NCBI RefSeq assembly: GCF_000017845.1
Contig: NC_010546.1
Span: forward strand, 2,730,001-2,762,000
Direction of reading: 5' to 3'
Source of the DNA: Crocosphaera subtropica ATCC 51142
GTDB taxonomy: Bacteria > Cyanobacteriota > Cyanobacteriia > Cyanobacteriales > Microcystaceae
Length of the DNA: 32,000 nt
In this document: piece by piece, positions 8,292-19,993 of the stretch
Position numbering within the stretch: the stretch's first letter is position 1
How the letters are laid out: the number at the start of each line of letters is the position of its first letter
Notes under the pieces: generated by a model
Database searches by the model: none
The model's input: only the letters and a program-made list of their open reading frames with translations
Told to the model about the DNA's origin: nothing
Position numbers and translations under genes: made by a program

Positions 8292-8550
8292 CTTTAGTAT
8301 GTCAATGCTTTTGCGTGTAAACTTTAACTTATACATGAAGTTATACATTACGATAACACTACTATTTTGATTATGGCTTTAAATGAGAATAGAGACATTT
8401 GACTCATTTGAATTCATTAAATCGACTCTAGTATTAATTAAAAGTTTCCTAACTATAGATAAATTCTTCCTGATGTTAAGTTTATGTTAACAATTGAAAA
8501 CAAGGCATCTGAAAGACCATTTATGTTCATCATTAGACGATTCCAAAAAA

Positions 8551-11500
8551 ATGAATGCTAATAACAATACCCTCAATAGGCAAGAACCTTGCCAGAAAAT
8601 ATTACACACCCTCGAAACAATTTCCCCAACTAAAGACTTAGGGTTGGACTTAGCTAAAACCTTTGAAATTGTAGAATGTGAATTTGGAGATGAAATTACT
8701 ACATTTCCTAGGAGGGCTGAAAAGAATGGACACAATCAAGACATGGATCAAGATGTTTATGTTGTCTGTCAAGGTCAAGTTAGGTTAGTCAGTTTTCAGA
8801 CCAATAAACAGAGAAATGTCTCAATTCAGTTACTCCAAGAAGGGGACATTTTTGGGGGAGATGGGTTAGGAAATCGAATCAGTTGGGCTTATGGTGCGAT
8901 CGCAGTGGGTTCAGACCCTGTGCAGGTGGCGAAAATTTCATCCCCTCAACTACAACCTTATTTAGAAAAGTTACCAGAACTTGAAACCCATCTGGCTACC
9001 ATTGCCCAACAAAGACAAACCTTAATCTTTTTTAAGCTCTTTACGAACCTGGGAACCCTACCCGGTCGAAGACTCCAACACCTATTACCTTATATCCAAA
9101 ATCAACGAATTCGAGCCGGAGAAAATCTGGCATCCTGGGGGAAAAAACAACCCAGTCGTTTGTGGTTGTGTCAAGGAGTCATTAAAAATGTCGACCTAGA
9201 AAGAGGTCATTCGTTTGGTTATCCTGAAACCATTCCTTCGGACTGGGTGGCTCAAACCGATCTCGAAGTCTATCAAATTCTCCAACAGGACTGGGATGCT
9301 GTTAGGGCGATCGCCCCTAGCTTACCCTCATCACCAGATAGTTCCTCCCATCTCTCCCCAACCGTTTCCCCAAAAAGTCATCCACCCCTTCCCCCGCCTA
9401 GTGCCTCTGTTCACCCTGAGCCACTTCCTCTCCCTGTCCCCCCTAACCCAGAATCATCAACGGTTGAATTTCCCAAACCCTTAAAAAAGCCCAGAGGATT
9501 ATGGCAAAATTATCCCTTTATTGAACAACAGAGTGCGGCCGACTGCGGTGCTACTTGTTTAGCCATGATTAGTCAATATTGGGGAAAAAGGCTCAATCTC
9601 AACTTTTTGCGAGACTTAGCAGGGGTTGGGCGTTCCGGGGCCTCTTTAAAAAACTTGGCCAAGGCCGCTGAAAAATTAGGTTATCAAGCCAGGCCTGTAC
9701 GAGCCAGTTTAAACCGCTTAATGGAAGAAAAAAATCCTTGGATCGCCCACTGGCAGGGGGATCACTATGTGGTGGTCTATCGTGTCAAAGGCGATCGCCT
9801 ACTCATTGCTGATCCGGCCCAGGGTAAACGGTTCATTCCTCGCCAAGAATTTATCACGGGATGGACAGGCTACGGTTTATTACTCGATCCCACCGAACAG
9901 TTAAATGAAGTCCCTACAGAAAAACGTTCTTTGGGGAGATTTTTGAAATTACTGTTACCCTATCGATCCCTAGGCATACAAATTATTTTCGCCTCTTTGC
10001 TTATTCAAATTTTTGGCTTAGTCACCCCTCTATTTACCCAAATTATCTTAGATAAGGTGGTGGTTAACAAAAGTCTGACCACCTTAAATGTGTTTGCCCT
10101 GGGGGTTCTTTTATTCGGGATCTGGAGTGTTTTATTATCGGGGGTTCGACAGTACCTACTGAGTTATTTGTCTAACCGTCTCGATCTGACCATGATTGGC
10201 GGTTTTATTAATCATGCCTTGTTGCTTCCCCTGAAATTTTTTGAATCTCGTCATGTGGGGGACATTATTACACGGGTTAATGAAAATCAGAAAATCCAGC
10301 GATTTTTGCTGAATCAGGTGGTGTTAGCCTGGTTAGATTTTTTAATGGGATTTGTCTATTTAGGGTTGATGCTCTATTACAACTGGCAACTTACTCTATT
10401 AATTGTGGCTTTAATCCCCCCAATTATGTTATTAACCCTGGGAGCAACCCCTTTATTGCGAAAAGTGTCAAGGGATGTCTTTAATCGCTCTGCTGAACAA
10501 AATTCGGCTTTGGTGGAAACCATTACAGGAGTGGCGACGGTCAAAGCTACCGCAACGGAAAAAGAACTACGTTGGCGTTGGGAAGAACGGTTAACCAATT
10601 ATCTGAATGCTCGATTTCGCAGCCAAAAACTGGGGATTAATCTACAAGCCGGCAGTGGTTTGATTAACTCCCTTGGCAGTACTGCACTCCTGTGGTATGG
10701 AGCAACCTTGGTGATCCAAGATCAACTCACCATTGGTCAATTTGTGGCCTTTAATATGATGATTGGTAAAGTGATCAACCCCGTTCTTTCTTTGGCTAAT
10801 CTTTGGGATGAACTGCAAGAGGTGTTAATTTCTGTCGAACGACTCAATGATATTTTTGACAGTCAACCCGAAGAAATACCCGGTCAACCCAGATTGCAGT
10901 TACCCCCCTTGAAAGGCCATATCAAATTTGATCATGTCACCTTTCGGTATAACGCTGACGAGGAACGCAACACCTTAGAGAATATTTCCTTTGAGGTGCA
11001 ACCTGGAGACACCATTGCCATTGTCGGACGCAGTGGTTCAGGGAAAACCACCTTAGTGAAGTTGCTTCAAGGACTGTATCCCCCAGACTCAGGAACCATT
11101 TACATCGATGAACACGATCTCAACCATATCTCTCCCCAATCCTTACGGAGTCAACTGGGGGTGGTTCCTCAAGAATGTTTCTTATTTTCTGGGACAATTT
11201 TCGAGAATATTACCCTATACCGTCCTGAATTTACCCTAGAACAAGTGGTGAAAGCAGCCCAACTCGCAGAAGCCCATGCTTTCATCCAGAGTATGCCGTT
11301 GGGATATAACACCAAAGTGGGAGAACGGGGAATGAATCTATCAGGGGGACAACGACAGCGCATTGCCATCGCCCGTGCGTTATTAGGCAAGCCACCGATT
11401 CTGATTTTAGATGAAGCCACCAGTTCCCTTGATACGGAGTCGGAACGCAGATTTCAAGCAAACCTTAGTCGTCTTTCCCACGACCGCACCACTTTTATTA

Positions 11501-11646
11501 TTGCTCATCGTCTCTCCACGGTTCGCAACGCTGATTGCATCCTTGTCTTAGATAAGGGAATTTTAGTTGAACAGGGAACCCACGAAGTCTTAATAGCAGA
11601 GCCAGGCATTTATGCTCATTTAGCGGAGCAACAACTCAATCTTTAA
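8551..11646 (+). CDS. HetC-like peptidase-containing ABC exporter: tandem cyclic-nucleotide-binding-like domains, Pro-rich linker, C39 peptidase, ABC transmembrane domain and ATPase
   Basis: The cNMP-like block is VYVVCQGQVRLVS...LQEGDIFGG. The C39 catalytic Cys block is QQSAADCGATCLAMISQYWG, and the His block is WQGDHYVVVY. There are six TM segments. Walker A is GRSGSGKTT, the signature is LSGGQRQRIAIARAL and Walker B is ILILDEATSSLD. The ORF also opens at a TTG at 8494; I chose the first ATG at 8551, and the true start is uncertain. Confidence 0.93.
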   Translation: MNANNNTLNRQEPCQKILHTLETISPTKDLGLDLAKTFEIVECEFGDEITTFPRRAEKNGHNQDMDQDVYVVCQGQVRLVSFQTNKQRNVSIQLLQEGDIFGGDGLGNRISWAYGAIAVGSDPVQVAKISSPQLQPYLEKLPELETHLATIAQQRQTLIFFKLFTNLGTLPGRRLQHLLPYIQNQRIRAGENLASWGKKQPSRLWLCQGVIKNVDLERGHSFGYPETIPSDWVAQTDLEVYQILQQDWDAVRAIAPSLPSSPDSSSHLSPTVSPKSHPPLPPPSASVHPEPLPLPVPPNPESSTVEFPKPLKKPRGLWQNYPFIEQQSAADCGATCLAMISQYWGKRLNLNFLRDLAGVGRSGASLKNLAKAAEKLGYQARPVRASLNRLMEEKNPWIAHWQGDHYVVVYRVKGDRLLIADPAQGKRFIPRQEFITGWTGYGLLLDPTEQLNEVPTEKRSLGRFLKLLLPYRSLGIQIIFASLLIQIFGLVTPLFTQIILDKVVVNKSLTTLNVFALGVLLFGIWSVLLSGVRQYLLSYLSNRLDLTMIGGFINHALLLPLKFFESRHVGDIITRVNENQKIQRFLLNQVVLAWLDFLMGFVYLGLMLYYNWQLTLLIVALIPPIMLLTLGATPLLRKVSRDVFNRSAEQNSALVETITGVATVKATATEKELRWRWEERLTNYLNARFRSQKLGINLQAGSGLINSLGSTALLWYGATLVIQDQLTIGQFVAFNMMIGKVINPVLSLANLWDELQEVLISVERLNDIFDSQPEEIPGQPRLQLPPLKGHIKFDHVTFRYNADEERNTLENISFEVQPGDTIAIVGRSGSGKTTLVKLLQGLYPPDSGTIYIDEHDLNHISPQSLRSQLGVVPQECFLFSGTIFENITLYRPEFTLEQVVKAAQLAEAHAFIQSMPLGYNTKVGERGMNLSGGQRQRIAIARALLGKPPILILDEATSSLDTESERRFQANLSRLSHDRTTFIIAHRLSTVRNADCILVLDKGILVEQGTHEVLIAEPGIYAHLAEQQLNL

Positions 11647-11887: not shown

Positions 11888-11994
11888 AAAAAAATTGATA
11901 ACTGTTTACTGTTGTTTGTTCCCTATCTTAATTAATAACTAATGATTAGCAAATTTTCTCTTATTTTCTCTTTATTCCACATCATCAATTGATC

Positions 11995-12831
11995 ATGAAA
12001 ACCGTTCCTATTATTCGCCGAACATTGCTAACTTTAATGACAGTTAGTTCAATGAGTTTGGCACTACCTAGTAAAGCAGCTAACTTTTTTACAGTATCTG
12101 AAATTAGCTTAGAACTCACAAATTTTAGTCATCTTCCTCATGATATTGCTGCTTTTGTAACCCAAGACGTGACAACTATTGCTAATATTGGTTTTGTTGC
12201 TGCACAAGTTGATGTAGATGCAATTTTTCAAGTGGAAAATAATGAAGCGATCGCTCAAGCTTATTCATCAATTGGTTTAATTGGATCAGGTACAGATTAT
12301 CTAGGCTCAGCCAATGTTTCTACTAATTTATTCGGTAGTTTTATGATTCCTGTAGGGGAATCTTTGCGCTTTGATATTAATTCTTACTTATCTCTAGAAA
12401 ATTTTACTGAGGATCTATTTTCAGGACATAGTACATCAGGAACTATTAGTTTTTTATTTCAAGATGTTTTAAATCAAACCGTCTATGAGGTTTTTCGTTT
12501 AACTGGTATTTTAAATACTAATAATAATGAGGAATTAGGTCGAGATATCCTCAAATTTGTTCGTGGTGATGGACTAAAAATTTCCAATTATTATGAACAA
12601 ATTGTATTAGAAGGCAATAACGAATCCTTAGTTCTTGCCTTTAGTGGCGTATTTGAACAAAAGTTTGAACAAGGGGCAATCATCAATTTAGTCGCTGTCA
12701 GTCAAACTTGTAATTATGATTCTAATGAGGTTGGTGGTTGTGTCACAATTCCTGAACCGTCAAATAGAACCAGTTTATTATTAGGTTTACTCTGCTTAAT
12801 TTCTGTCGGGTTACGCTCAAGAATTATGTAA
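11995..12831 (+). CDS. PEP-CTERM sorting-domain secreted protein
   Basis: N-terminal signal peptide MKTVPIIRRTLLTLMTVSSMSLALPSKA. The C-terminus is PEPSNRTSLLLGLLCLISVGLRSRIM, that is PEP, a hydrophobic helix and a basic tail. The ORF track opens at a TTG at 11989; the ATG at 11995 is more likely. Confidence 0.75.
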   Translation: MKTVPIIRRTLLTLMTVSSMSLALPSKAANFFTVSEISLELTNFSHLPHDIAAFVTQDVTTIANIGFVAAQVDVDAIFQVENNEAIAQAYSSIGLIGSGTDYLGSANVSTNLFGSFMIPVGESLRFDINSYLSLENFTEDLFSGHSTSGTISFLFQDVLNQTVYEVFRLTGILNTNNNEELGRDILKFVRGDGLKISNYYEQIVLEGNNESLVLAFSGVFEQKFEQGAIINLVAVSQTCNYDSNEVGGCVTIPEPSNRTSLLLGLLCLISVGLRSRIM

Positions 12832-13527
12832 AAGATAGTTAAGTTCAATGGCTAGCCATTCCTGAAACATTCGATCCATAATTTCTTCATAAAGTATTGG
12901 GGTCAGTTCCGCCTCAATAAATTCTTCAACCATTAAAATATGATAGCCTTGATCTGTTTTTAACGGAGTAATCACTTTTTTGGGCTGTGCTGCAAAAATA
13001 TTAGCAGAAAAATCAGGTTTAAGATTGAAGCGATATAGTTTTCCTTCATGGCCACAATGATAACGACGTTGTTCATCGATATCATAAATATGTGCTGCTT
13101 GATAAAAACTCATTTCTTCTTCTTCTATTTGATAAAAAATTTCCCAAGCCAACTTTTCATACGGGACAATAATTTGATAAAGCAAAACTTGTTCAAAATC
13201 TACTTTATTCTGAGCAAAATATTTTTCTACTTCTTGAGAAAATAATGCTTCGGCTAGTTTTTGGCGGAGTATACTATTATAAATACCTGCTTCCCAATCA
13301 TCAGAATTAATCATTTGCTCGTCTAACCAAGCATAGGTGTCAGCAGCTTTTTCTAGTGATCTCTGAGTGCGTTGACTATCAGCTTCTATTTGAATTTCCT
13401 CTGCTGTCACTGTCAAATTCATTTTTTCAGCAGCTTGATTAATAATTCTTTGATATTGAATTTGGCAATAAATTTCTTTAAATTTCAGTGTTGTTTTGAG
13501 GAAATTGATGATTGTATCGACTTCCAT
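12817..13527 (-). CDS. Parvulin-type peptidyl-prolyl cis-trans isomerase (PpiC/SurA-like), with no signal peptide
   Basis: The C-terminal rotamase block FAAQPKKVITPLKTDQGYHILMVEEF follows a SurA-N-like helical region. A GAGG Shine-Dalgarno sits upstream of the ATG at 13527. The 3' end overlaps the PEP-CTERM gene by 15 nt. Confidence 0.7.
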   Translation of the reverse strand: MEVDTIINFLKTTLKFKEIYCQIQYQRIINQAAEKMNLTVTAEEIQIEADSQRTQRSLEKAADTYAWLDEQMINSDDWEAGIYNSILRQKLAEALFSQEVEKYFAQNKVDFEQVLLYQIIVPYEKLAWEIFYQIEEEEMSFYQAAHIYDIDEQRRYHCGHEGKLYRFNLKPDFSANIFAAQPKKVITPLKTDQGYHILMVEEFIEAELTPILYEEIMDRMFQEWLAIELNYLLHNS

Positions 13528-13711: not shown

Positions 13712-13963
13712 TTAGCGAAATAGTCTTGCAGAAACGTCTATAGTCGTCACAGGTCGCCCGCCAATGCCCCAGGAGAAACCACCAATAAAGGCCAAACCAA
13801 GTTTAACAGGGCTGCCCTCTAAGTCTCCGAGGTCGTCGCCAACTTGGGTAAAGGTTTCAACTGCCCAGCGAGACTTAAAGGAATAAAAACCCCCTTCAAC
13901 GGTTTGGGCATTGGGCAAACTCTCGTCATAAAAGTTTAAATCAGTAATGGTTAACTGGCTCAT
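13712..13963 (-). CDS. Double-glycine-leader peptide a (83 aa): leader MSQLTITDLNFYDESLPNAQTVEGG, 58-aa core
   Basis: ATG preceded by AGGAAG. The leader matches the I-x-D-L-x-x-x-x-E...GG pattern shared with four neighbouring genes and sits next to a C39 ABC exporter. Confidence 0.7.
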   Translation of the reverse strand: MSQLTITDLNFYDESLPNAQTVEGGFYSFKSRWAVETFTQVGDDLGDLEGSPVKLGLAFIGGFSWGIGGRPVTTIDVSARLFR

Positions 13964-13993
13964 GATTGTCTTCCTATTTTGCGGTATAATGGC

Positions 13994-14257
13994 TTAGAGT
14001 GAGAAAGTCCAGGTCAAGAAATTAAACCCTGTAAAGGTATTTGTCCCGATTGCTTCGCCAGCACCATTAACCAAGGCATCTATTCTTCCTGGGTTATCAA
14101 AATTACCATTGACTGTGGCTGACGAGTCGGGAAAAATAGGTCTTAAGAGACTAAGGCGATTAATACGACTGGTTATCGCTCCCTTAATTTGCTCAGGATC
14201 TTGTTGAGCAGTCTGGTGATTAATGAGTTTGAGATGGTCTAGATCAGAAATATTCAT
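13994..14257 (-). CDS. Double-glycine-type leader peptide b (87 aa): leader MNISDLDHLKLINHQTAQQDPEQIKGA (a GA variant), 60-aa core
   Basis: I chose an internal ATG of the 157-aa track ORF. From that ATG the product begins MNISDLDHL, nearly identical to the start of peptide c. The upstream 70 codons overlap peptide c out of frame. Confidence 0.6.
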   Translation of the reverse strand: MNISDLDHLKLINHQTAQQDPEQIKGAITSRINRLSLLRPIFPDSSATVNGNFDNPGRIDALVNGAGEAIGTNTFTGFNFLTWTFSL

Positions 14258-14354
14258 GGGTAGTACCCTTTTGTCTGTTATTTTTCTTGCATAAAAGAAA
14301 ATTTTTGGGAGAGAAAAATTCTTACTTTTTCTCTTAATTGGGTCATCATATTGC

Positions 14355-14615
14355 TTAGAATATTCTTCCAATAGCAACTTGAAACAGTGAGCTACTATAG
14401 GCAACAATATGTTGATCAGGTTGACTAATAGTGACAGGTTCTTCAATAATTTCGGAGGCTGAACCAATAGAACCTAAGTTAAAGGTTCTGATATCTCTTC
14501 CTAAAGCGGCTCTACCAGCAAAGAGAGTAAAAGCTTCGCTAAAGGACATAAAACCGCCTTTTACTTCATCAGATTGATGGATAGTTTCTAGATGTTCTAA
14601 ATCAGAAATATTCAT
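14355..14615 (-). CDS. Double-glycine-leader peptide c (86 aa): leader MNISDLEHLETIHQSDEVKGG, 65-aa core
   Basis: ATG with GGAGA upstream. It has the canonical GG leader and its own promoter-like motif at 14665-14694. Confidence 0.75.
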   Translation of the reverse strand: MNISDLEHLETIHQSDEVKGGFMSFSEAFTLFAGRAALGRDIRTFNLGSIGSASEIIEEPVTISQPDQHIVAYSSSLFQVAIGRIF

Positions 14616-14664
14616 TTTTTGGAATCTCCAATGCTAATGCTTTGATTAACCAAATTTTAGGTCA

Positions 14665-14694
14665 ATTTTATCTCCAATACCTGCCAGTTTGGCA
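14665..14694 (-). promoter_or_regulatory. Putative promoter/operator of the peptide c-b-a unit: palindrome TGCCAAACTGGCA, 11 nt, TAAAAT
   Basis: The minus strand reads TGCCAAACTGGCA-ggtattggaga-TAAAAT. The palindrome is at 14682-14694 and the -10-like box at 14665-14670. The same architecture occurs at 15094-15124 and 15688-15718. Confidence 0.55.
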
Positions 14695-14738
14695 ATCATT
14701 ATAAAATCAATAAATTGATATTTTGATCAGCCATAAAA

Positions 14739-14767
14739 ATCAGGAAGCTATTAGTAAGCTCCCTGAT
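14739..14767 (-). terminator. Rho-independent terminator after peptide d
   Basis: Stem atcaggaagc / gctccctgat (10 bp, 1 mismatch), flanked by an A-run and a T-run. It lies between the peptide d stop (14800) and the peptide c promoter motif. Confidence 0.65.
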
Positions 14768-14799
14768 TTTTTTAATTAAACTGATGAAATATCCTCTGG

Positions 14800-15030
14800 T
14801 TAGCTGAGGGAGCTAGAGTAGGCATCAATACGAGCATAGGCACGGCTACCGAGAGGACCAGCAACAGCACCAGTGGTGTCGGTATCAGTTTCAAAATCGA
14901 TTTCAGTGTCAGATTCTACACCAGTGGCAATAGAACCACCGCCAACGCGAGAAAAAGCACGACCGATACCACCACAGATTTCTTCAGCAGTAGAAACAAC
15001 TTCTAAGTATTTTAGATCTTGGATATTCAT
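14800..15030 (-). CDS. Double-glycine-leader peptide d (76 aa): leader MNIQDLKYLEVVSTAEEICGG, acidic 55-aa core
   Basis: The internal ATG at 15030 is preceded by AAGGAG at good spacing. The track ORF starts 11 codons earlier with no Shine-Dalgarno. The leader pattern is conserved. Confidence 0.75.
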   Translation of the reverse strand: MNIQDLKYLEVVSTAEEICGGIGRAFSRVGGGSIATGVESDTEIDFETDTDTTGAVAGPLGSRAYARIDAYSSSLS

Positions 15031-15093
15031 GAGGTTTAGCTCCTTAGTTCTTGTTAAAACCAACCGTATTGGTTGTTATTAATATAGTAAGTA

Positions 15094-15124
15094 TTTTTAT
15101 CAAGTTTGACTTGCCATTTTGGCA
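15094..15124 (-). promoter_or_regulatory. Putative promoter/operator of peptide d: TGCCAAAATGGCA, 12 nt, TAAAAA
   Basis: Palindrome at 15112-15124 and -10-like box at 15094-15099, read on the minus strand. Confidence 0.55.
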
Positions 15125-15202
15125 CAAAGTTTAAACAAATTTCATACTAAAACTTGACATATAAAAGTAAGAATTATTGTCATTTATTTTTTATAAAAAA
15201 TA

Positions 15203-15237
15203 GATCCTCTTATCCAATTAAATTAGGAAAGAGGATC
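15203..15237 (-). terminator. Rho-independent terminator after peptide e
   Basis: A 9-bp perfect stem, gatcctctt (15203-15211) / aagaggatc (15229-15237). On the minus strand it is followed by TATTTTTT. Confidence 0.7.
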
Positions 15238-15315
15238 ACAATTTCATCATCAATAGATAGAATTTATCTACTCAGTAATTTACTCTTATTGGTACAGTTG
15301 AATTTCGAGTTTTAA

Positions 15316-15582
15316 CTAATCTCCAACCACTACGCTGATACTTCTTCGTCCACCATCTGATTTCTTTTCTTCTCCTCCTACTGAAATAATAGAATTAATA
15401 CTAATTCTAATACTAGCAACTCCGTCACGTTCAATGGTTTCTACTACAAACGGATCATTACTTGACCCTGAATTATCAGGATTAGTTCTTGGATTAATTC
15501 GACTTTCTGTTCTGCCAATCCCACCAAAAACAACTGAGGGATCAGTGACAGTTTCACGATAACTCAAATCAGAAATCAACAT
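15316..15582 (-). CDS. Double-glycine-leader peptide e (88 aa): leader MLISDLSYRETVTDPSVVFGG, 67-aa core
   Basis: ATG preceded by AAGGAG. The leader pattern is conserved. The core starts IGRTESRI, comparable to IGRAFSRV in peptide d. Confidence 0.72.
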   Translation of the reverse strand: MLISDLSYRETVTDPSVVFGGIGRTESRINPRTNPDNSGSSNDPFVVETIERDGVASIRISINSIISVGGEEKKSDGGRRSISVVVGD

Positions 15583-15687
15583 GATATTTCTCCTTAATAA
15601 GACAGTTTTTTGCTAGAAATTAACGGATGTACAAGAGATATAGAAAATACAAAGGTTAATAATACCTATCACCTAATAATTTACCAA

Positions 15688-15718
15688 GTTTTAGTGGGAA
15701 AGCATTGCCAATTTGGCA
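15688..15718 (-). promoter_or_regulatory. Putative promoter/operator of peptide e: TGCCAAATTGGCA, 12 nt, TAAAAC
   Basis: Palindrome at 15706-15718 and -10-like box at 15688-15693, read on the minus strand. Confidence 0.55.
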
Positions 15719-15763: not shown

Positions 15764-16153
15764 TTAAAATTGCCACAGTTGTAAGCGAAACCCTCCATGA
15801 ATTTTTGCAGTGTTATTTGTCAATTCTTCTAAGTAATTGATATCTTTAATTTTTTCCCTAGATGTTTGAGTTGTTGTCTGTTGACATGAATCTTTTGATA
15901 ATTGCTGTTTTTGGAAATTCCTCTGCTCATTTTTTTCTTTTTTATGAGACTGTTTTAAACAATTATCTTTAATTAAACGATTATAAGTCCGATAGGGAAT
16001 ATAATGCAGTGGATTATAACCTGCCGTTTGTAAAATTAAAACACAAGCCCAGGAATATTTACCTGCTAAGATCGCATCAACAATTTTTTCAAATTGTTCT
16101 TCGGTCATGGTTCGTGATTGTTTGCTGTTTGCGCTATAACCAGAGTTAGACAT
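15764..16153 (-). CDS. HetP-family protein carrying a C-terminal double-glycine leader-like segment plus an 8-residue tail
   Basis: The N-terminal block [47 protein letters not shown] matches my recollection of the conserved HetP domain. The C-terminus is [29 protein letters not shown]. The ATG at 16153 has GAGGAG upstream; the track start at 16159 is a TTG. Confidence 0.7.
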
Positions 16154-16455: not shown

Positions 16456-18189
16456 CTAAAGCTTTATGCCATCCTTTTGTATTTGCTTAATGGGGTCAAG
16501 CAACACATCAATAATGCGACGGCGACGAATGATAATGTCTGCTGTTACGGTTTGTCCCGGTTTAAAGGCAATCCTTTCTTGATTTTTTAGAATATGATCC
16601 CGTTCTAGCTCGATCTCAACTCGATAAATTTCACCTAGTTTTTCGTCGGATTCCGCATCGGCAGAAATGGCGGTTACTTCACCCGTAATGACCCCATAAT
16701 CCTGATAAGGGTAAGCATCTAGCTTAACTTGTGTCGGCATTCCTTTGTTGACAAAACCAGCTTCTTCGTTGGGGAGAACCGCAGACACCACTAACGGCAC
16801 ATTATGGGGGGCAATCTCAGCAACGGTTTGTCCTGCTTCAATGACTTCGCCGGTGTTTTTGAGATCGAGGGATAAAATGGTGCCACTGATGGGAGCTTTA
16901 AGATACTTATATTGCAGCTTGCTTTGGGCAGCAATTAACAAATTTTTGTTCTCTGTTATTTTTCCTTGCAGTTGGGTCATTTCCACTTCAAGTTGCTGAA
17001 TTTTTTGCATGGCTTCTATTTGCTTCCGTTGCGCTTGCCCTTGCTTCTGAGTCAATTCAGCTTGAGCCTGTTGAACGGTTTGTTGGGCTAAGAACAGTTC
17101 TCCTTGATTTTCGGTCATTTGCGATCGCAGATCCCGTATCCCTTGATTCCCTTGAAAGATTTGTTCGTTGGCTTGGGTCACTTCTTGTAGTTGACTACTG
17201 ATAATCTGTTGTTCTGTTTGTCTCAGGGTTTGTTCGGCTTCGTAGAGATATTCTTGAGAAATGGCTCCTTCTTCTTGTAGGGGTTTAAGTCGGTTGATCC
17301 GCTCTTGATGGGCAACTTTCTCGGCCTGCAATTGATTAAGTCGTTGTTGGGCTAGGGTGGCTAGGGGTTGTAACTGTTTTTGTCGTAATTGATAGGCTGT
17401 AGCCTCGTTTTGTTGTTGAGCTAATAATTGACGGACTGTGGCAATCTTTTCTTTAGTATGGGCGATGACCGCTTGTTGCGCTTGTAGTTCGGCCGAGGCA
17501 ATGGCTGCATCTGTTTTGGCTTCTAATTCAATCCGTTCTTGTAGGGTTTGTTTTTGGCTTAACTCGGTTTCATAGGCTCGGAGCATTTCTTGAAGTCGAT
17601 TAACTTCTTTTTGGGCTAGTTCTGTATCGAATTCCACTAATAATTGACCGGCTTGTACCTCTTGTCCCTCTTCGACGGCAATGTCGGTCACTTTCCCCAA
17701 TTCTACTGGTTGAATTTTATAGGTTTCTCCCTCTGGCACCAATTTTCCTTGGGCTTTCCCTACTTCTTCAAGGGTTCCAAACCAGGCCCAGGCCCCGAAT
17801 GCAAGACAAAATGCCATTCCTCCTAAGATGAACTTTTGGGGTAAGGTGGCAGGGGGTTGGTCTAAGAGGGTTTGGACAGAAGACGACCAGAGATTGACTG
17901 GTTCTTCTAACTGGGGTGAACGATAGGCAGGGGTTGGGTTAAAGGTGGTTTGAGGAAGCTCTATTGCGTTGCTACTGACCCCACCATAAATATGGTTAGA
18001 GTTCTCAGGGGTCATCAAATTGGCCTGGTGTTTCTGACTAACTAATGAAGCGTCTTTGTCTTGAGTAAAATCCTGGACAAATTGCTTGTTCGTTCGTTCA
18101 AAGTGGGTTGACATAGTAAATCTCTTATGGTTTAGATTGATACTTTTATTCAAGGAAAGTTCACAACATTTATTAGGCTTAAAGTTCAT
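16456..18189 (-). CDS. HlyD-family membrane-fusion (periplasmic adaptor) protein of a type I / peptide export system
   Basis: A single TM helix (FILGGMAFCLAFGAWAWFG), a lipoyl-like block VEEGQEVQAGQLLVEFD, about 250 aa of Q/E/L-rich coiled coil, and a C-terminal beta-barrel block GMPTQVKLDAYPYQDYGVITGEVTAIS. An alternative ATG lies at 18114. Confidence 0.88.
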   Translation of the reverse strand: MNFKPNKCCELSLNKSINLNHKRFTMSTHFERTNKQFVQDFTQDKDASLVSQKHQANLMTPENSNHIYGGVSSNAIELPQTTFNPTPAYRSPQLEEPVNLWSSSVQTLLDQPPATLPQKFILGGMAFCLAFGAWAWFGTLEEVGKAQGKLVPEGETYKIQPVELGKVTDIAVEEGQEVQAGQLLVEFDTELAQKEVNRLQEMLRAYETELSQKQTLQERIELEAKTDAAIASAELQAQQAVIAHTKEKIATVRQLLAQQQNEATAYQLRQKQLQPLATLAQQRLNQLQAEKVAHQERINRLKPLQEEGAISQEYLYEAEQTLRQTEQQIISSQLQEVTQANEQIFQGNQGIRDLRSQMTENQGELFLAQQTVQQAQAELTQKQGQAQRKQIEAMQKIQQLEVEMTQLQGKITENKNLLIAAQSKLQYKYLKAPISGTILSLDLKNTGEVIEAGQTVAEIAPHNVPLVVSAVLPNEEAGFVNKGMPTQVKLDAYPYQDYGVITGEVTAISADAESDEKLGEIYRVEIELERDHILKNQERIAFKPGQTVTADIIIRRRRIIDVLLDPIKQIQKDGIKL

Positions 18190-18952: not shown

Positions 18953-19993
18953 ATGACTAACAATCAGGTTTTTTCGATTGCTAATAATTCTGATCTCAAA
19001 AATTTTAACTATCAAGAATTAAATCCACAAATGCGCCATGAGGTTCAAGAGTTAACCCTTGATATCAAAAATCGACTCCGTCGCTGCGCTCAAGATATCT
19101 ATATTATTGGTGATAATCTATGTAAAATCAAAGAACAATTACAACATGGACAATTTCGGACGTGGTTAAAAGCCGAATTTGATTGGAGTGTATCTGCTGC
19201 TAATAAATTTATGCAGGTTAGTCAACAATTTCAACTCAATGACTTAGAAACAGTGGAAATTTCTCCCTCGGCTCTCTATATTTTAGCAGCCCCTTCGACA
19301 CCCCAAGAAGTTCGCACTCAGGCTTTAGATACAGCGAAACAAGGTCAAACCATTACCTTTTCTTTTGCCAAACAACTCCTCAAACAAAATAAAGAGAAAC
19401 AATCAGATCCAAATATTAATAACCAACCAAGAAATAATCTTATAACCCAGGAATATCAATATGATCCAAAAATTAACAACCAGTTATTCCCTGATCAATC
19501 TAATGTCTTAGACTTGGTAAACACAAAGACAAGTGAGCTAAATTTATCGGTTCAAATTTATAGTTCTTCTGAATTTAATAATTATTTAGAGGAAGCATGG
19601 CAAAAAATGTTTGGTGCAGAAGAGTATTTATCTTTGCTAGTATGTCAAATTAATTCAGAAGATAGCAAACAGTCAGAAACCTTAATGTTTCAAGTGTTTC
19701 AACAACTCAGTTATGGATTAGCTTTTAGTTTAAAGCGAGCGGGGGATTTTGTGGGACAATATGATGAGAATCAATGTATTGCTGTTTTATCCAATACTGA
19801 TCCCGAAGGCGTTCAATGTGTAGTAGATCGGTTTATGAAGTGGTTTAGTGCTTGGCAAAAAACCCTATATAAGTCTGATCGATTCAAAACCCTAAATATT
19901 CATATCGGAACCGCTAGTATGATTCCTAAGCAGGGATTTACCCCTCACAGTCTCATTGAAACGGCGTTAAAGAATAAGGAATTAATGAAGTAG
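18953..19993 (+). CDS. DUF3102-like N-terminal domain fused to a degenerate GGDEF-like domain
   Basis: The N-terminus, IIGDNLCKIKEQLQHGQFRTWLKAEFDWSVSAANKFMQV, resembles DUF3102. The C-terminus follows the GGDEF fold pattern (LSLLVCQIN..., RAGDFVGQYDENQCIAVLSNTDPEG, LNIHIGTAS), but the GGDEF signature is replaced by YDENQ. Confidence 0.5.
   Translation: MTNNQVFSIANNSDLKNFNYQELNPQMRHEVQELTLDIKNRLRRCAQDIYIIGDNLCKIKEQLQHGQFRTWLKAEFDWSVSAANKFMQVSQQFQLNDLETVEISPSALYILAAPSTPQEVRTQALDTAKQGQTITFSFAKQLLKQNKEKQSDPNINNQPRNNLITQEYQYDPKINNQLFPDQSNVLDLVNTKTSELNLSVQIYSSSEFNNYLEEAWQKMFGAEEYLSLLVCQINSEDSKQSETLMFQVFQQLSYGLAFSLKRAGDFVGQYDENQCIAVLSNTDPEGVQCVVDRFMKWFSAWQKTLYKSDRFKTLNIHIGTASMIPKQGFTPHSLIETALKNKELMK

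Follow-up and report, generated by a model that had tools for sequence, protein, structure and literature searches.

Peptides with double-glycine (DG) leaders and HetC-type exporters are widespread in cyanobacteria and have been tied to biofilm formation (ebfG/pteB) as well as to heterocyst differentiation (hetC-hetP-patC). The genes of one such locus were described by Wang, Fewer and Sivonen in 2011 (PMC3140520), who reported the peptides, the HetP-like KIxDLxYLE-x10-GG motif, and the long-type exporter, without any mention of promoters or palindromes. In their Table S3, a group II bacteriocin cluster is credited with the precursors cce_2673, CDS3, and cce_2674 to cce_2676 and with a HetP-like one, cce_2677. 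Here, we analyze the stretch carrying these genes, a window of 32,000 nucleotides from Crocosphaera subtropica ATCC 51142 (Cyanothece sp. ATCC 51142, CP000806; genome coordinate = window coordinate + 2,730,000), with respect to a 13-bp palindrome, TGCCA-N3-TGGCA, standing in front of the peptide genes. Pfam and NCBIfam matches recover the features of a group II DG-peptide cluster, i.e., the long-type exporter, HlyD, several DG precursors, and the HetP-like protein. The present locus is one of the group II clusters of PMC3140520, to which the putative operator is the newly added element.

A related export system is the ebfG/pteB module of Synechococcus elongatus PCC 7942, sharing with our locus DG peptides, a C39 exporter, a type I secretion component, and co-regulation (PMC4997328, PMC11420160). 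Its genes behave as a small co-regulated set, the Biofilm-1 iModulon (PMC11420160, PMC4997328), and the mechanism of ebfG regulation was not yet known according to the authors of the 2016 study (PMC4997328). In contrast to the locus analyzed here, it belongs to group III, for which Table 2 of Wang and colleagues gives no HetP precursor (PMC3140520). In terms of promoter layout, the counterpart is the NtcA class II promoter, in which GTAN8TAC, centered at -41.5, is followed after ~22 nt by TAN3T (PMC3898017). The promoters described below have the same layout, likewise lack a -35 hexamer, and by implication share recruitment by a dimer. They differ in the box itself, being a 14-bp GTA-N8-TAC for NtcA but an odd 13-bp palindrome with 5-bp half-sites spaced 8 bp apart in the window, and in the genes served, which belong to nitrogen assimilation there and to a peptide-export cluster here. 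Unlike the NtcA system, the clusters encode no CRP-family regulator with a DNA-binding domain.

Two further systems are comparable in part. The HetR site (core GGGGT-CTA-ACCCC) is also a 5-N3-5 palindrome tied to the hetP locus but has a different sequence; it stands upstream of hetP and hetZ, whereas in the locus maps the TGCCA palindrome follows hetP in the Nostocales loci and is placed upstream of HlyD-hetP in most others. The operators of Gram-positive bacteriocin and competence genes (LytTR repeats of PlnC/ComE; ComR box) are direct repeats, or longer palindromes read by RNPP or LytTR proteins. Common to these regulons and our clusters are a shared operator before every peptide and before the exporter or regulatory operon, DG cargo, and a peptidase-containing ATP-binding cassette (ABC) exporter (PCAT), and an auto-induction logic fits both. 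On the other hand, the cyanobacterial clusters lack genes for histidine kinases, response regulators, and RNPP proteins.

The palindrome and its promoter position

Exact TGCCA-N3-TGGCA occurs three times in the whole 32-kb window (Table 1) and nowhere else in it, and every copy is located upstream of a minus-strand DG-leader peptide gene or unit, namely e, d, and c-b-a. No match was obtained in any of 100 dinucleotide-preserving shuffles of the window. An initial annotation, made from the letters of the window, had placed the palindrome before all three peptide units and had seen no further copy, and both statements hold. Allowing up to two mismatches added 11 window matches compared with 8.6 expected, i.e., chance level. 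The 10 specified bases are identical in the three sites, while the remaining flanks share no sequence.

Because peptide d has no homologues outside its own genome, as judged by homology search, the HetP-like protein was used as search anchor for a wider comparison. It has 2094 relatives, from which an alignment of 25 served as scan query. With one genome per species, the scan provided 80 HetP-anchored loci (855 kb in total) from Chroococcales, Pleurocapsales, Oscillatoriales, Synechococcales-type, and Nostocales genomes. The exact palindrome is present in 73 of these 80 loci, with 148 copies overall. It ranks first among all 1024 possible 5-N3-5 palindromes, for which the median is zero and the runner-up, with 35 copies, is poly-T. 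Equally strict is the spacer: compared with 148 copies for N3, spacers of N0-N2 and N4-N8 yielded 0-4 copies each, and one-mismatch variants of the palindrome amounted to 43 in total. The top G+C-containing 5-N3-5 palindrome after TGCCA-N3-TGGCA was GGGGT-N3-ACCCC with 27 copies. As it matches the core of the known HetR site at hetP, we treated it as a positive control.

The 10 palindrome bases are invariant at the same promoter position in Chroococcales, Pleurocapsales, Oscillatoriales, and Nostocales. TGCCA-N3-TGGCA is conserved across cyanobacterial orders, hence not specific to the genome of C. subtropica ATCC 51142. Among the nearest relatives, Crocosphaera chwakensis CCY0110 has two sites, one in front of the first peptide gene and one in front of the third; Rippkaea PCC 8801 has three, at these two positions and additionally before HlyD; and Gloeothece PCC 7424 has three in the positions seen in PCC 8801. 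In all three, the sites keep their positions in the gene order though the flanking sequence has fully diverged. Even peptide d, despite its lack of homologues elsewhere, has a conserved operator.

The usual order in these loci is exporter, palindrome, HlyD, HetP, palindrome, DG peptides (which may come as further palindrome-peptide units), and sometimes palindrome and PpiC-like gene. Sorted by what lies downstream, 46 of the 148 sites precede a DG-leader gene, 25 precede HlyD-hetP, and six the PpiC-like gene, with one site each in the first and last of these classes also facing an unassigned side. No recognised gene within range follows 51 sites, ~30 of them of a Nostocales type, and 20 sites lack a strict -10 box at the expected place. 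The coordinated control of cargo genes suggested in the initial annotation is supported for the peptide units, but the reach of the motif is wider: in relatives, it also stands before the HlyD-hetP operon and, in some cases, before the PpiC-like gene. In some Oscillatoriales and Planktothrix-type loci, three to four tandem palindromes, 80-135 bp apart and each with a -10-like hexamer at 22 nt, stand before a single DG peptide gene (L012 5154-5458, L017 6015-6318, L018 9692-9908, and L187 100-269).

The Nostocales type is represented by ~30 loci in which a single palindrome is found 0.5-1.3 kb downstream of the start of hetP and has TAAATT or TACATT at a distance of 22 nt (e.g., L039 7324-7700, L041 7147, L059 7138, L040 7000, and L033 6856). 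No DG-leader gene follows the palindrome in these loci. Downstream of it are a Shine-Dalgarno sequence and a conserved tiny frame of 4-5 codons (M-x-N-Y/F-stop), farther on a TGGTGGTTCTTTTT element reading as a 12-13-residue frame, and then the PpiC-like gene. The downstream element matched no Rfam family in eight loci. The gene that follows hetP in Anabaena PCC 7120 is patC (asr2819), with an effect on the heterocyst pattern (PMC4133259), and the palindrome-element region of the Nostocales may correspond to the patC region of that strain.

Counting TAnnnT hexamers downstream of the palindrome gave one sharp peak, with 96 hexamers at 22 nt and another 38 at 21 nt, compared with ~9 at every other offset between 0 and 49. 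In the 80 loci, 128 of the 148 exact sites have the hexamer at 21-22 nt. The box TAAAAN at 11-12 nt, proposed earlier as the -10 element, does exist in the window (TAAAAT, TAAAAA, and TAAAAC), but this spacing is conserved in only 8 of 133 oriented sites, and TAnnnT shows no excess at 11-12 nt; as a -10 box it has to be given up in favor of the hexamer at 22 nt. TAAAA lies between operator and -10 box in all three window promoters (14665-14670, 15094-15099, and 15688-15693). It may have been left behind locally by module duplication, or it may be an additional A/T-rich element.

With the hexamer set at -12 to -7, the palindrome covers positions ~-47 to -35, its center falling near -41. In the logo of the oriented sites, nothing TTGACA-like stands 16-18 nt upstream of the -10 box. 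The logo does contain an upstream A-tract at -8 to -3 relative to the palindrome, a T and then a C immediately before it, and an A immediately after it. Congruently, a sigma-70 consensus scan of the window returned none of the three palindrome-associated promoters. The dyad position and the absent -35 hexamer both fit a class II geometry for sigma-70 with the center at ~-41, the transcription starts being predicted. Of the earlier notion of a dimer site overlapping the -35 region, the symmetry and the fixed position stand, while the overlap is recast as this class II geometry.

Described operators of similar appearance were compared and set aside. As already pointed out in the initial annotation, the site is unlike the NtcA and CRP consensus sequences: GTA-N8-TAC is not found, with the three window sites and the 151-site logo giving TGCCA-N3-TGGCA, and CRP/FNR boxes (TGTGA-N6-TCACA, TTGAT-N4-ATCAA) are even dyads with a 4-6-bp gap, whereas only the N3 spacer is used here. 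The HetR site (GAGGGGTCTAACCCCTC-type) differs in sequence, and its GGGGT-N3-ACCCC core was found separately in the loci.

The invariant motif, the fixed spacing to the -10 box, the gene context, and the conservation across orders are observed. On this basis, we assign a probability of roughly 0.6 to the palindrome being the operator of a dimeric, sequence-specific activator dedicated to the HetC-type PCAT/HlyD/HetP/DG-peptide export cluster. Since the site stands 22 nt upstream of TAnnnT and no -35 hexamer is present, the dimer, centered ~41 bp upstream of the predicted start, would recruit sigma-70-type RNA polymerase in a class II manner, as NtcA does. One copy of this putative operator stands before each peptide transcription unit and, in most relatives, another before HlyD-hetP and sometimes one before the PpiC-like gene. 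Cargo, export accessory, and HetP would consequently be switched on together, and with hetP behind a site in most non-heterocystous relatives, the circuit would include a feedback on hetP.

Candidates for the protein that reads the site

Only four gene families are shared by the loci, namely HetP (81), HlyD (74), the exporter (72), and the PpiC-like protein (36). A classical regulator gene is neither conserved in the 80 loci nor present in the window. The initial annotation had seen no obvious regulator in the locus, which is correct for classical regulators but overlooked the HetP-family gene directly upstream of site 3. HetP has been called a "nonspecific DNA-binding protein" in a 2026 PNAS paper, in which the chromatin immunoprecipitation (ChIP) peaks of sigma-HetZ were lost in a hetP mutant (PMC13342950). 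The window protein consists of an N-terminal domain of ~60 residues, a low-complexity linker, a DG motif, and an 8-residue tail. In the AlphaFold2 model (pLDDT 88), the domain forms three helices (residues 18-29, 33-43, and 54-73). A stretch of 16 residues is nearly invariant across orders, with I52 varying, a degree of conservation that matches the invariance of the DNA site. The third helix carries an invariant, partly basic RTYNRL stretch, and K62 is likewise invariant. A sub-threshold, weak Pfam match to the winged-helix RTP family was obtained for 7 of the 25 HetP-family members. We tentatively propose the N-terminal three-helix domain of the cluster HetP-family protein as the palindrome-binding protein, at odds somewhat below those of a factor encoded elsewhere (see below).

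The C-terminal part has a different character. Cluster HetP proteins end in a DG-leader-like KIxDLxYLE-x10-GG motif and a short, often aromatic-rich tail (window 15764-15850, minus strand), which reads FRLQLWQF here and FRYFWW or MGIFEYFWR elsewhere. This C-terminus gives the impression of an exportable peptide that is joined to an intracellular domain and can be cleaved off, and the HetP-like protein is a probable substrate of the exporter's peptidase domain. Speculatively, the C39 peptidase of the exporter might cut HetP after its internal DG motif, releasing or changing the N-terminal DNA-binding domain, while the aromatic tail might be exported, so that cleavage would couple export to transcription. 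A similar release model has been floated for HetC substrates (PMC10986499). Extended to the whole family, with the heterocyst commitment factor HetP included, HetP proteins would be TGCCA-N3-TGGCA activators and pro-proteins cut by the HetC-type exporter. They would form an auto-inducing loop in which the short aromatic tail is exported as a signal and the DNA-binding domain is freed, joining export, cell-cell signaling, and transcription. In heterocyst-formers, the hetP promoter would have been rewired to HetR, the operator surviving downstream of hetP and driving an unannotated transcript. In this full form, the model is doubtful, more so than the binding of the palindrome by the HetP domain as such.

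Sites outside the export cluster bear directly on this question. A metagenome scan for TGCCAAAATGGCA-N21-22-TAnnnT gave at least 120 matches, mostly chance occurrences in unrelated taxa, so the scan leaves the regulon undefined. Among the matches listed, ~10 are cyanobacterial palindrome promoters: six stand before DG-leader genes, one is a Nostocales-type site beside hetP, and two precede GG-leader precursors adjoining an ATP-grasp gene. The latter two come from independent contigs (L115 4179-4574 and L200 3152-3552), on which the palindrome and a -10 box at 22 nt precede a GG-leader precursor with the leader MHHPFDLDS..LDLDFEE..GG beside a RimK-like ATP-grasp gene. The palindrome regulon thus seems to reach unlinked peptide-precursor loci. 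In other contigs, which do not look cyanobacterial (L143/L160, L163, L112, L091, and L121; G+C 0.26-0.50), the palindrome occurs 3-4 times per contig in other repeated intergenic units, possibly as sites of unrelated proteins.

A number of observations weigh against a dedicated activator or against HetP in this role. Neither HetP nor an exporter is encoded within a few kb of the L115 and L200 sites; as palindrome promoters exist there with no HetP nearby, the factor acts in trans and could be encoded anywhere. Foldseek searches of the Protein Data Bank (PDB) with full-length and domain-only HetP models returned best E-values of 2-5, and no sequence homologue turned up when the PDB was searched with a profile of the HetP domain. 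TnpE, SANT/Myb, and primase Fe-S domains, considered as fold relatives, were rejected as Foldseek matches at chance level. The loop between helices 2 and 3 has 10 residues, unlike a classic helix-turn-helix, and the DNA binding of HetP is described as nonspecific (PMC13342950). The co-occurrence of HetP and palindrome proves little because the loci were chosen through HetP. In the window, no palindrome stands in front of the HlyD-hetP operon, so any feedback on hetP here would not run through this site. Furthermore, the half-site centers are separated by 8 bp, an uncommon distance for helix-turn-helix dimers, and activation rather than repression is read from geometry only.

According to the leading alternative, the operator is read by an unlinked transcription factor, e.g., of the LysR type, while HetP is just a co-regulated target or an exporter substrate. 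The palindrome promoters away from any HetP gene, the lack of a significant DNA-binding match for the HetP fold, and the reported nonspecific binding (PMC13342950) all speak for it. We regard it as a serious contender that falls short of even odds, given that neither the conserved genes of the 80 loci nor those of the window include a further regulator. For the LysR type in particular, TGCCAnnnTGGCA formally is a T-N11-A dyad. As a rule, LysR proteins recognize a site near -65 together with a second one at -35 and are encoded divergently. Here, the T-N11-A pattern belongs to a single dyad at -41, not -65, and no LysR gene is found among the conserved families or in the window.

Divergently from HlyD, the window encodes a DUF3102 protein whose C-terminal domain is GGDEF-like (18953-19993, plus strand), as does Crocosphaera chwakensis (L205 6341-7282), and in PCC 8801 a GAF-GGDEF protein adjoins the exporter (L206 3000-4106). 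The DUF3102-GGDEF protein was rejected as candidate regulator, being conserved only in the closest relative and not across the 80 loci. Together with the cyclic nucleoside monophosphate (cNMP)-binding domains of the exporter, the GGDEF-type neighbors hint at a second-messenger input.

Activator, repressor, or promoter element

The perfect symmetry, the tight phase to the -10 box, and the missing -35 hexamer together argue for a dimeric activator and against the remaining explanations. A repressor operator, at which a dimer on -47 to -35 would silence the cluster until a signal removes it, would agree with the overlap of the site with the binding position of sigma region 4. It would also agree with the related export cluster of Synechococcus elongatus, which is held off by an extracellular inhibitor (PMC4997328). 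We nevertheless consider repression improbable, as the fixed 21-22 nt to the -10 box is an exactness that repressors do not need, and the promoters offer no -35 hexamer for activator-independent transcription.

Still much less likely is direct recognition of the palindrome by an alternative sigma factor, as an unusual -35-like promoter element. The fixed spacing to a downstream element would suit such a reading, as would the many group 2-4 sigma factors of cyanobacteria, HetZ being a sigma factor with the -35 element TCCGGA (PMC13342950). Against this, both half-sites are invariant and the symmetry is perfect over 148 copies, as for a dimer; the -10 box follows after 22 nt and not after 16-18; the -10 box is an ordinary TAnnnT and not the TGnA of HetZ; and the -24/-12 arrangement of sigma-54 does not fit. 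For sigma-54 (TGGCAC-N5-TTGCW), the bases after TGGCA are ggtattggaga, agtcaaacttg, and atgctttccca, none of which places a TTGC where the pattern calls for it. Sigma-54 is not known from cyanobacteria. The DIF1 promoter of sigma-HetZ (TCCGGA-N16-17-TGnA; PMC13342950) was dismissed as well, TCCGGA being absent from our sites and the -10 box being TAnnnT. An RNA hairpin or terminator was rejected because the palindrome lies upstream of the -10 box.

Finally, functionless leftovers of a tandem promoter-peptide-terminator duplication, or a dispersed repeat, could be read into the modular layout of the window and the paralogous leaders of its five peptides, but this explanation is refuted by the conservation of the same 10 bases at a fixed promoter position across four orders, the palindrome ranking, the -10 spacing peak, the unrelated flanks of three copies with 10 identical bases, and the conserved operator of a peptide unique to its own genome.

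Gene neighborhood and significance of the putative operator

The features of the window are compiled in Table 1. The leaders of the five peptides are paralogous and fit M-x-I-x-DL-x-(Y/H)-LE...GG. Peptides c, b, and a have no palindrome between them and probably form one operon. The hairpin terminators that the initial annotation had placed after peptides d and e, giving a modular promoter-peptide-terminator layout, are borne out by folding energies, z-scores, and U-runs.

Table 1. Positions of the palindromes, predicted -10 boxes, genes, and terminators in window coordinates
Feature	Position	Strand	Remarks
Palindrome 1, TGCCAAACTGGCA (minus-strand reading)	14682..14694	-	exact match; putative operator of c-b-a unit
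Palindrome 2, TGCCAAAATGGCA	15112..15124	-	exact match; putative operator of peptide d
Palindrome 3, TGCCAAATTGGCA	15706..15718	-	exact match; putative operator of peptide e
Predicted -10 box TAAAAT	14654..14659	-	22 nt after palindrome 1; predicted start ~14647
Predicted -10 box TACTAT	15084..15089	-	22 nt after palindrome 2; predicted start ~15077
Predicted -10 box TAAATT	15678..15683	-	22 nt after palindrome 3; predicted start ~15671
DG-leader peptide e, cce_2676	15316..15582	-	88 aa, MLISDLSYRE..VFGG; open reading frame/leader reading
DG-leader peptide d, cce_2675	14800..15030	-	76 aa from ATG 15030; annotated from TTG 15063
DG-leader peptides c-b-a unit	13712..14615	-	no palindrome inside
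Peptide c, cce_2674	14615-14355	-	
Peptide b, "CDS3"	14257-13994	-	
Peptide a, cce_2673	13963-13712	-	
Intrinsic terminator after peptide e	15194..15237	-	-16.6 kcal/mol, z -3.85, U-run
Intrinsic terminator after peptide d	14735..14771	-	-20.4 kcal/mol, z -6.38, U-run
HetP-family protein, cce_2677	15764..16153	-	directly upstream of site 3; candidate regulator
HlyD-type membrane fusion protein (adaptor)	16456..18189	-	palindrome before it in 25 related loci, none here
PpiC-like peptide-maturation protein	12817..13527	-	hidden Markov model (HMM) matches; conserved cluster member, own palindrome in some relatives
HetC-type PCAT with cNMP-binding, C39 peptidase, and ABC domains	8494..11646	+	start codon uncertain

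Next to the cluster, a protein of 280 residues with a signal-like N-terminus is encoded at 11989-12831 on the plus strand, its frame sharing positions 12817-12831 with the end of the PpiC-like gene. It had no HMM match; its C-terminal PEP...hydrophobic...RSR tail resembles a PEP-CTERM sorting signal, and a gene of 291-292 residues occupies its place in three close relatives. An Rfam search of the window and eight Nostocales loci returned one tRNA only.

With respect to novelty, the cluster and its peptides (Wang 2011, PMC3140520) and the class II promoter architecture are known already. What would be new is the regulator-binding motif and its regulon. The motif strings were not found in the searchable cyanobacterial literature, all six string matches proving unrelated, and a literature text search for cce_2673 to cce_2678 found no mention. 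Apparently, the palindrome operator of the cyanobacterial peptide-export clusters is undescribed.

The near-invariant operator provides a DNA probe for the regulator and a predictor of its regulon for any cyanobacterial genome. It also offers a cheap and concrete test of HetP as a sequence-specific transcription factor. If HetP indeed turned out to be the regulator, the finding would be of larger import. The operator also suggests that the hetC and hetP genes of heterocyst-formers descend from an older, self-regulated peptide-export module of unicellular cyanobacteria.

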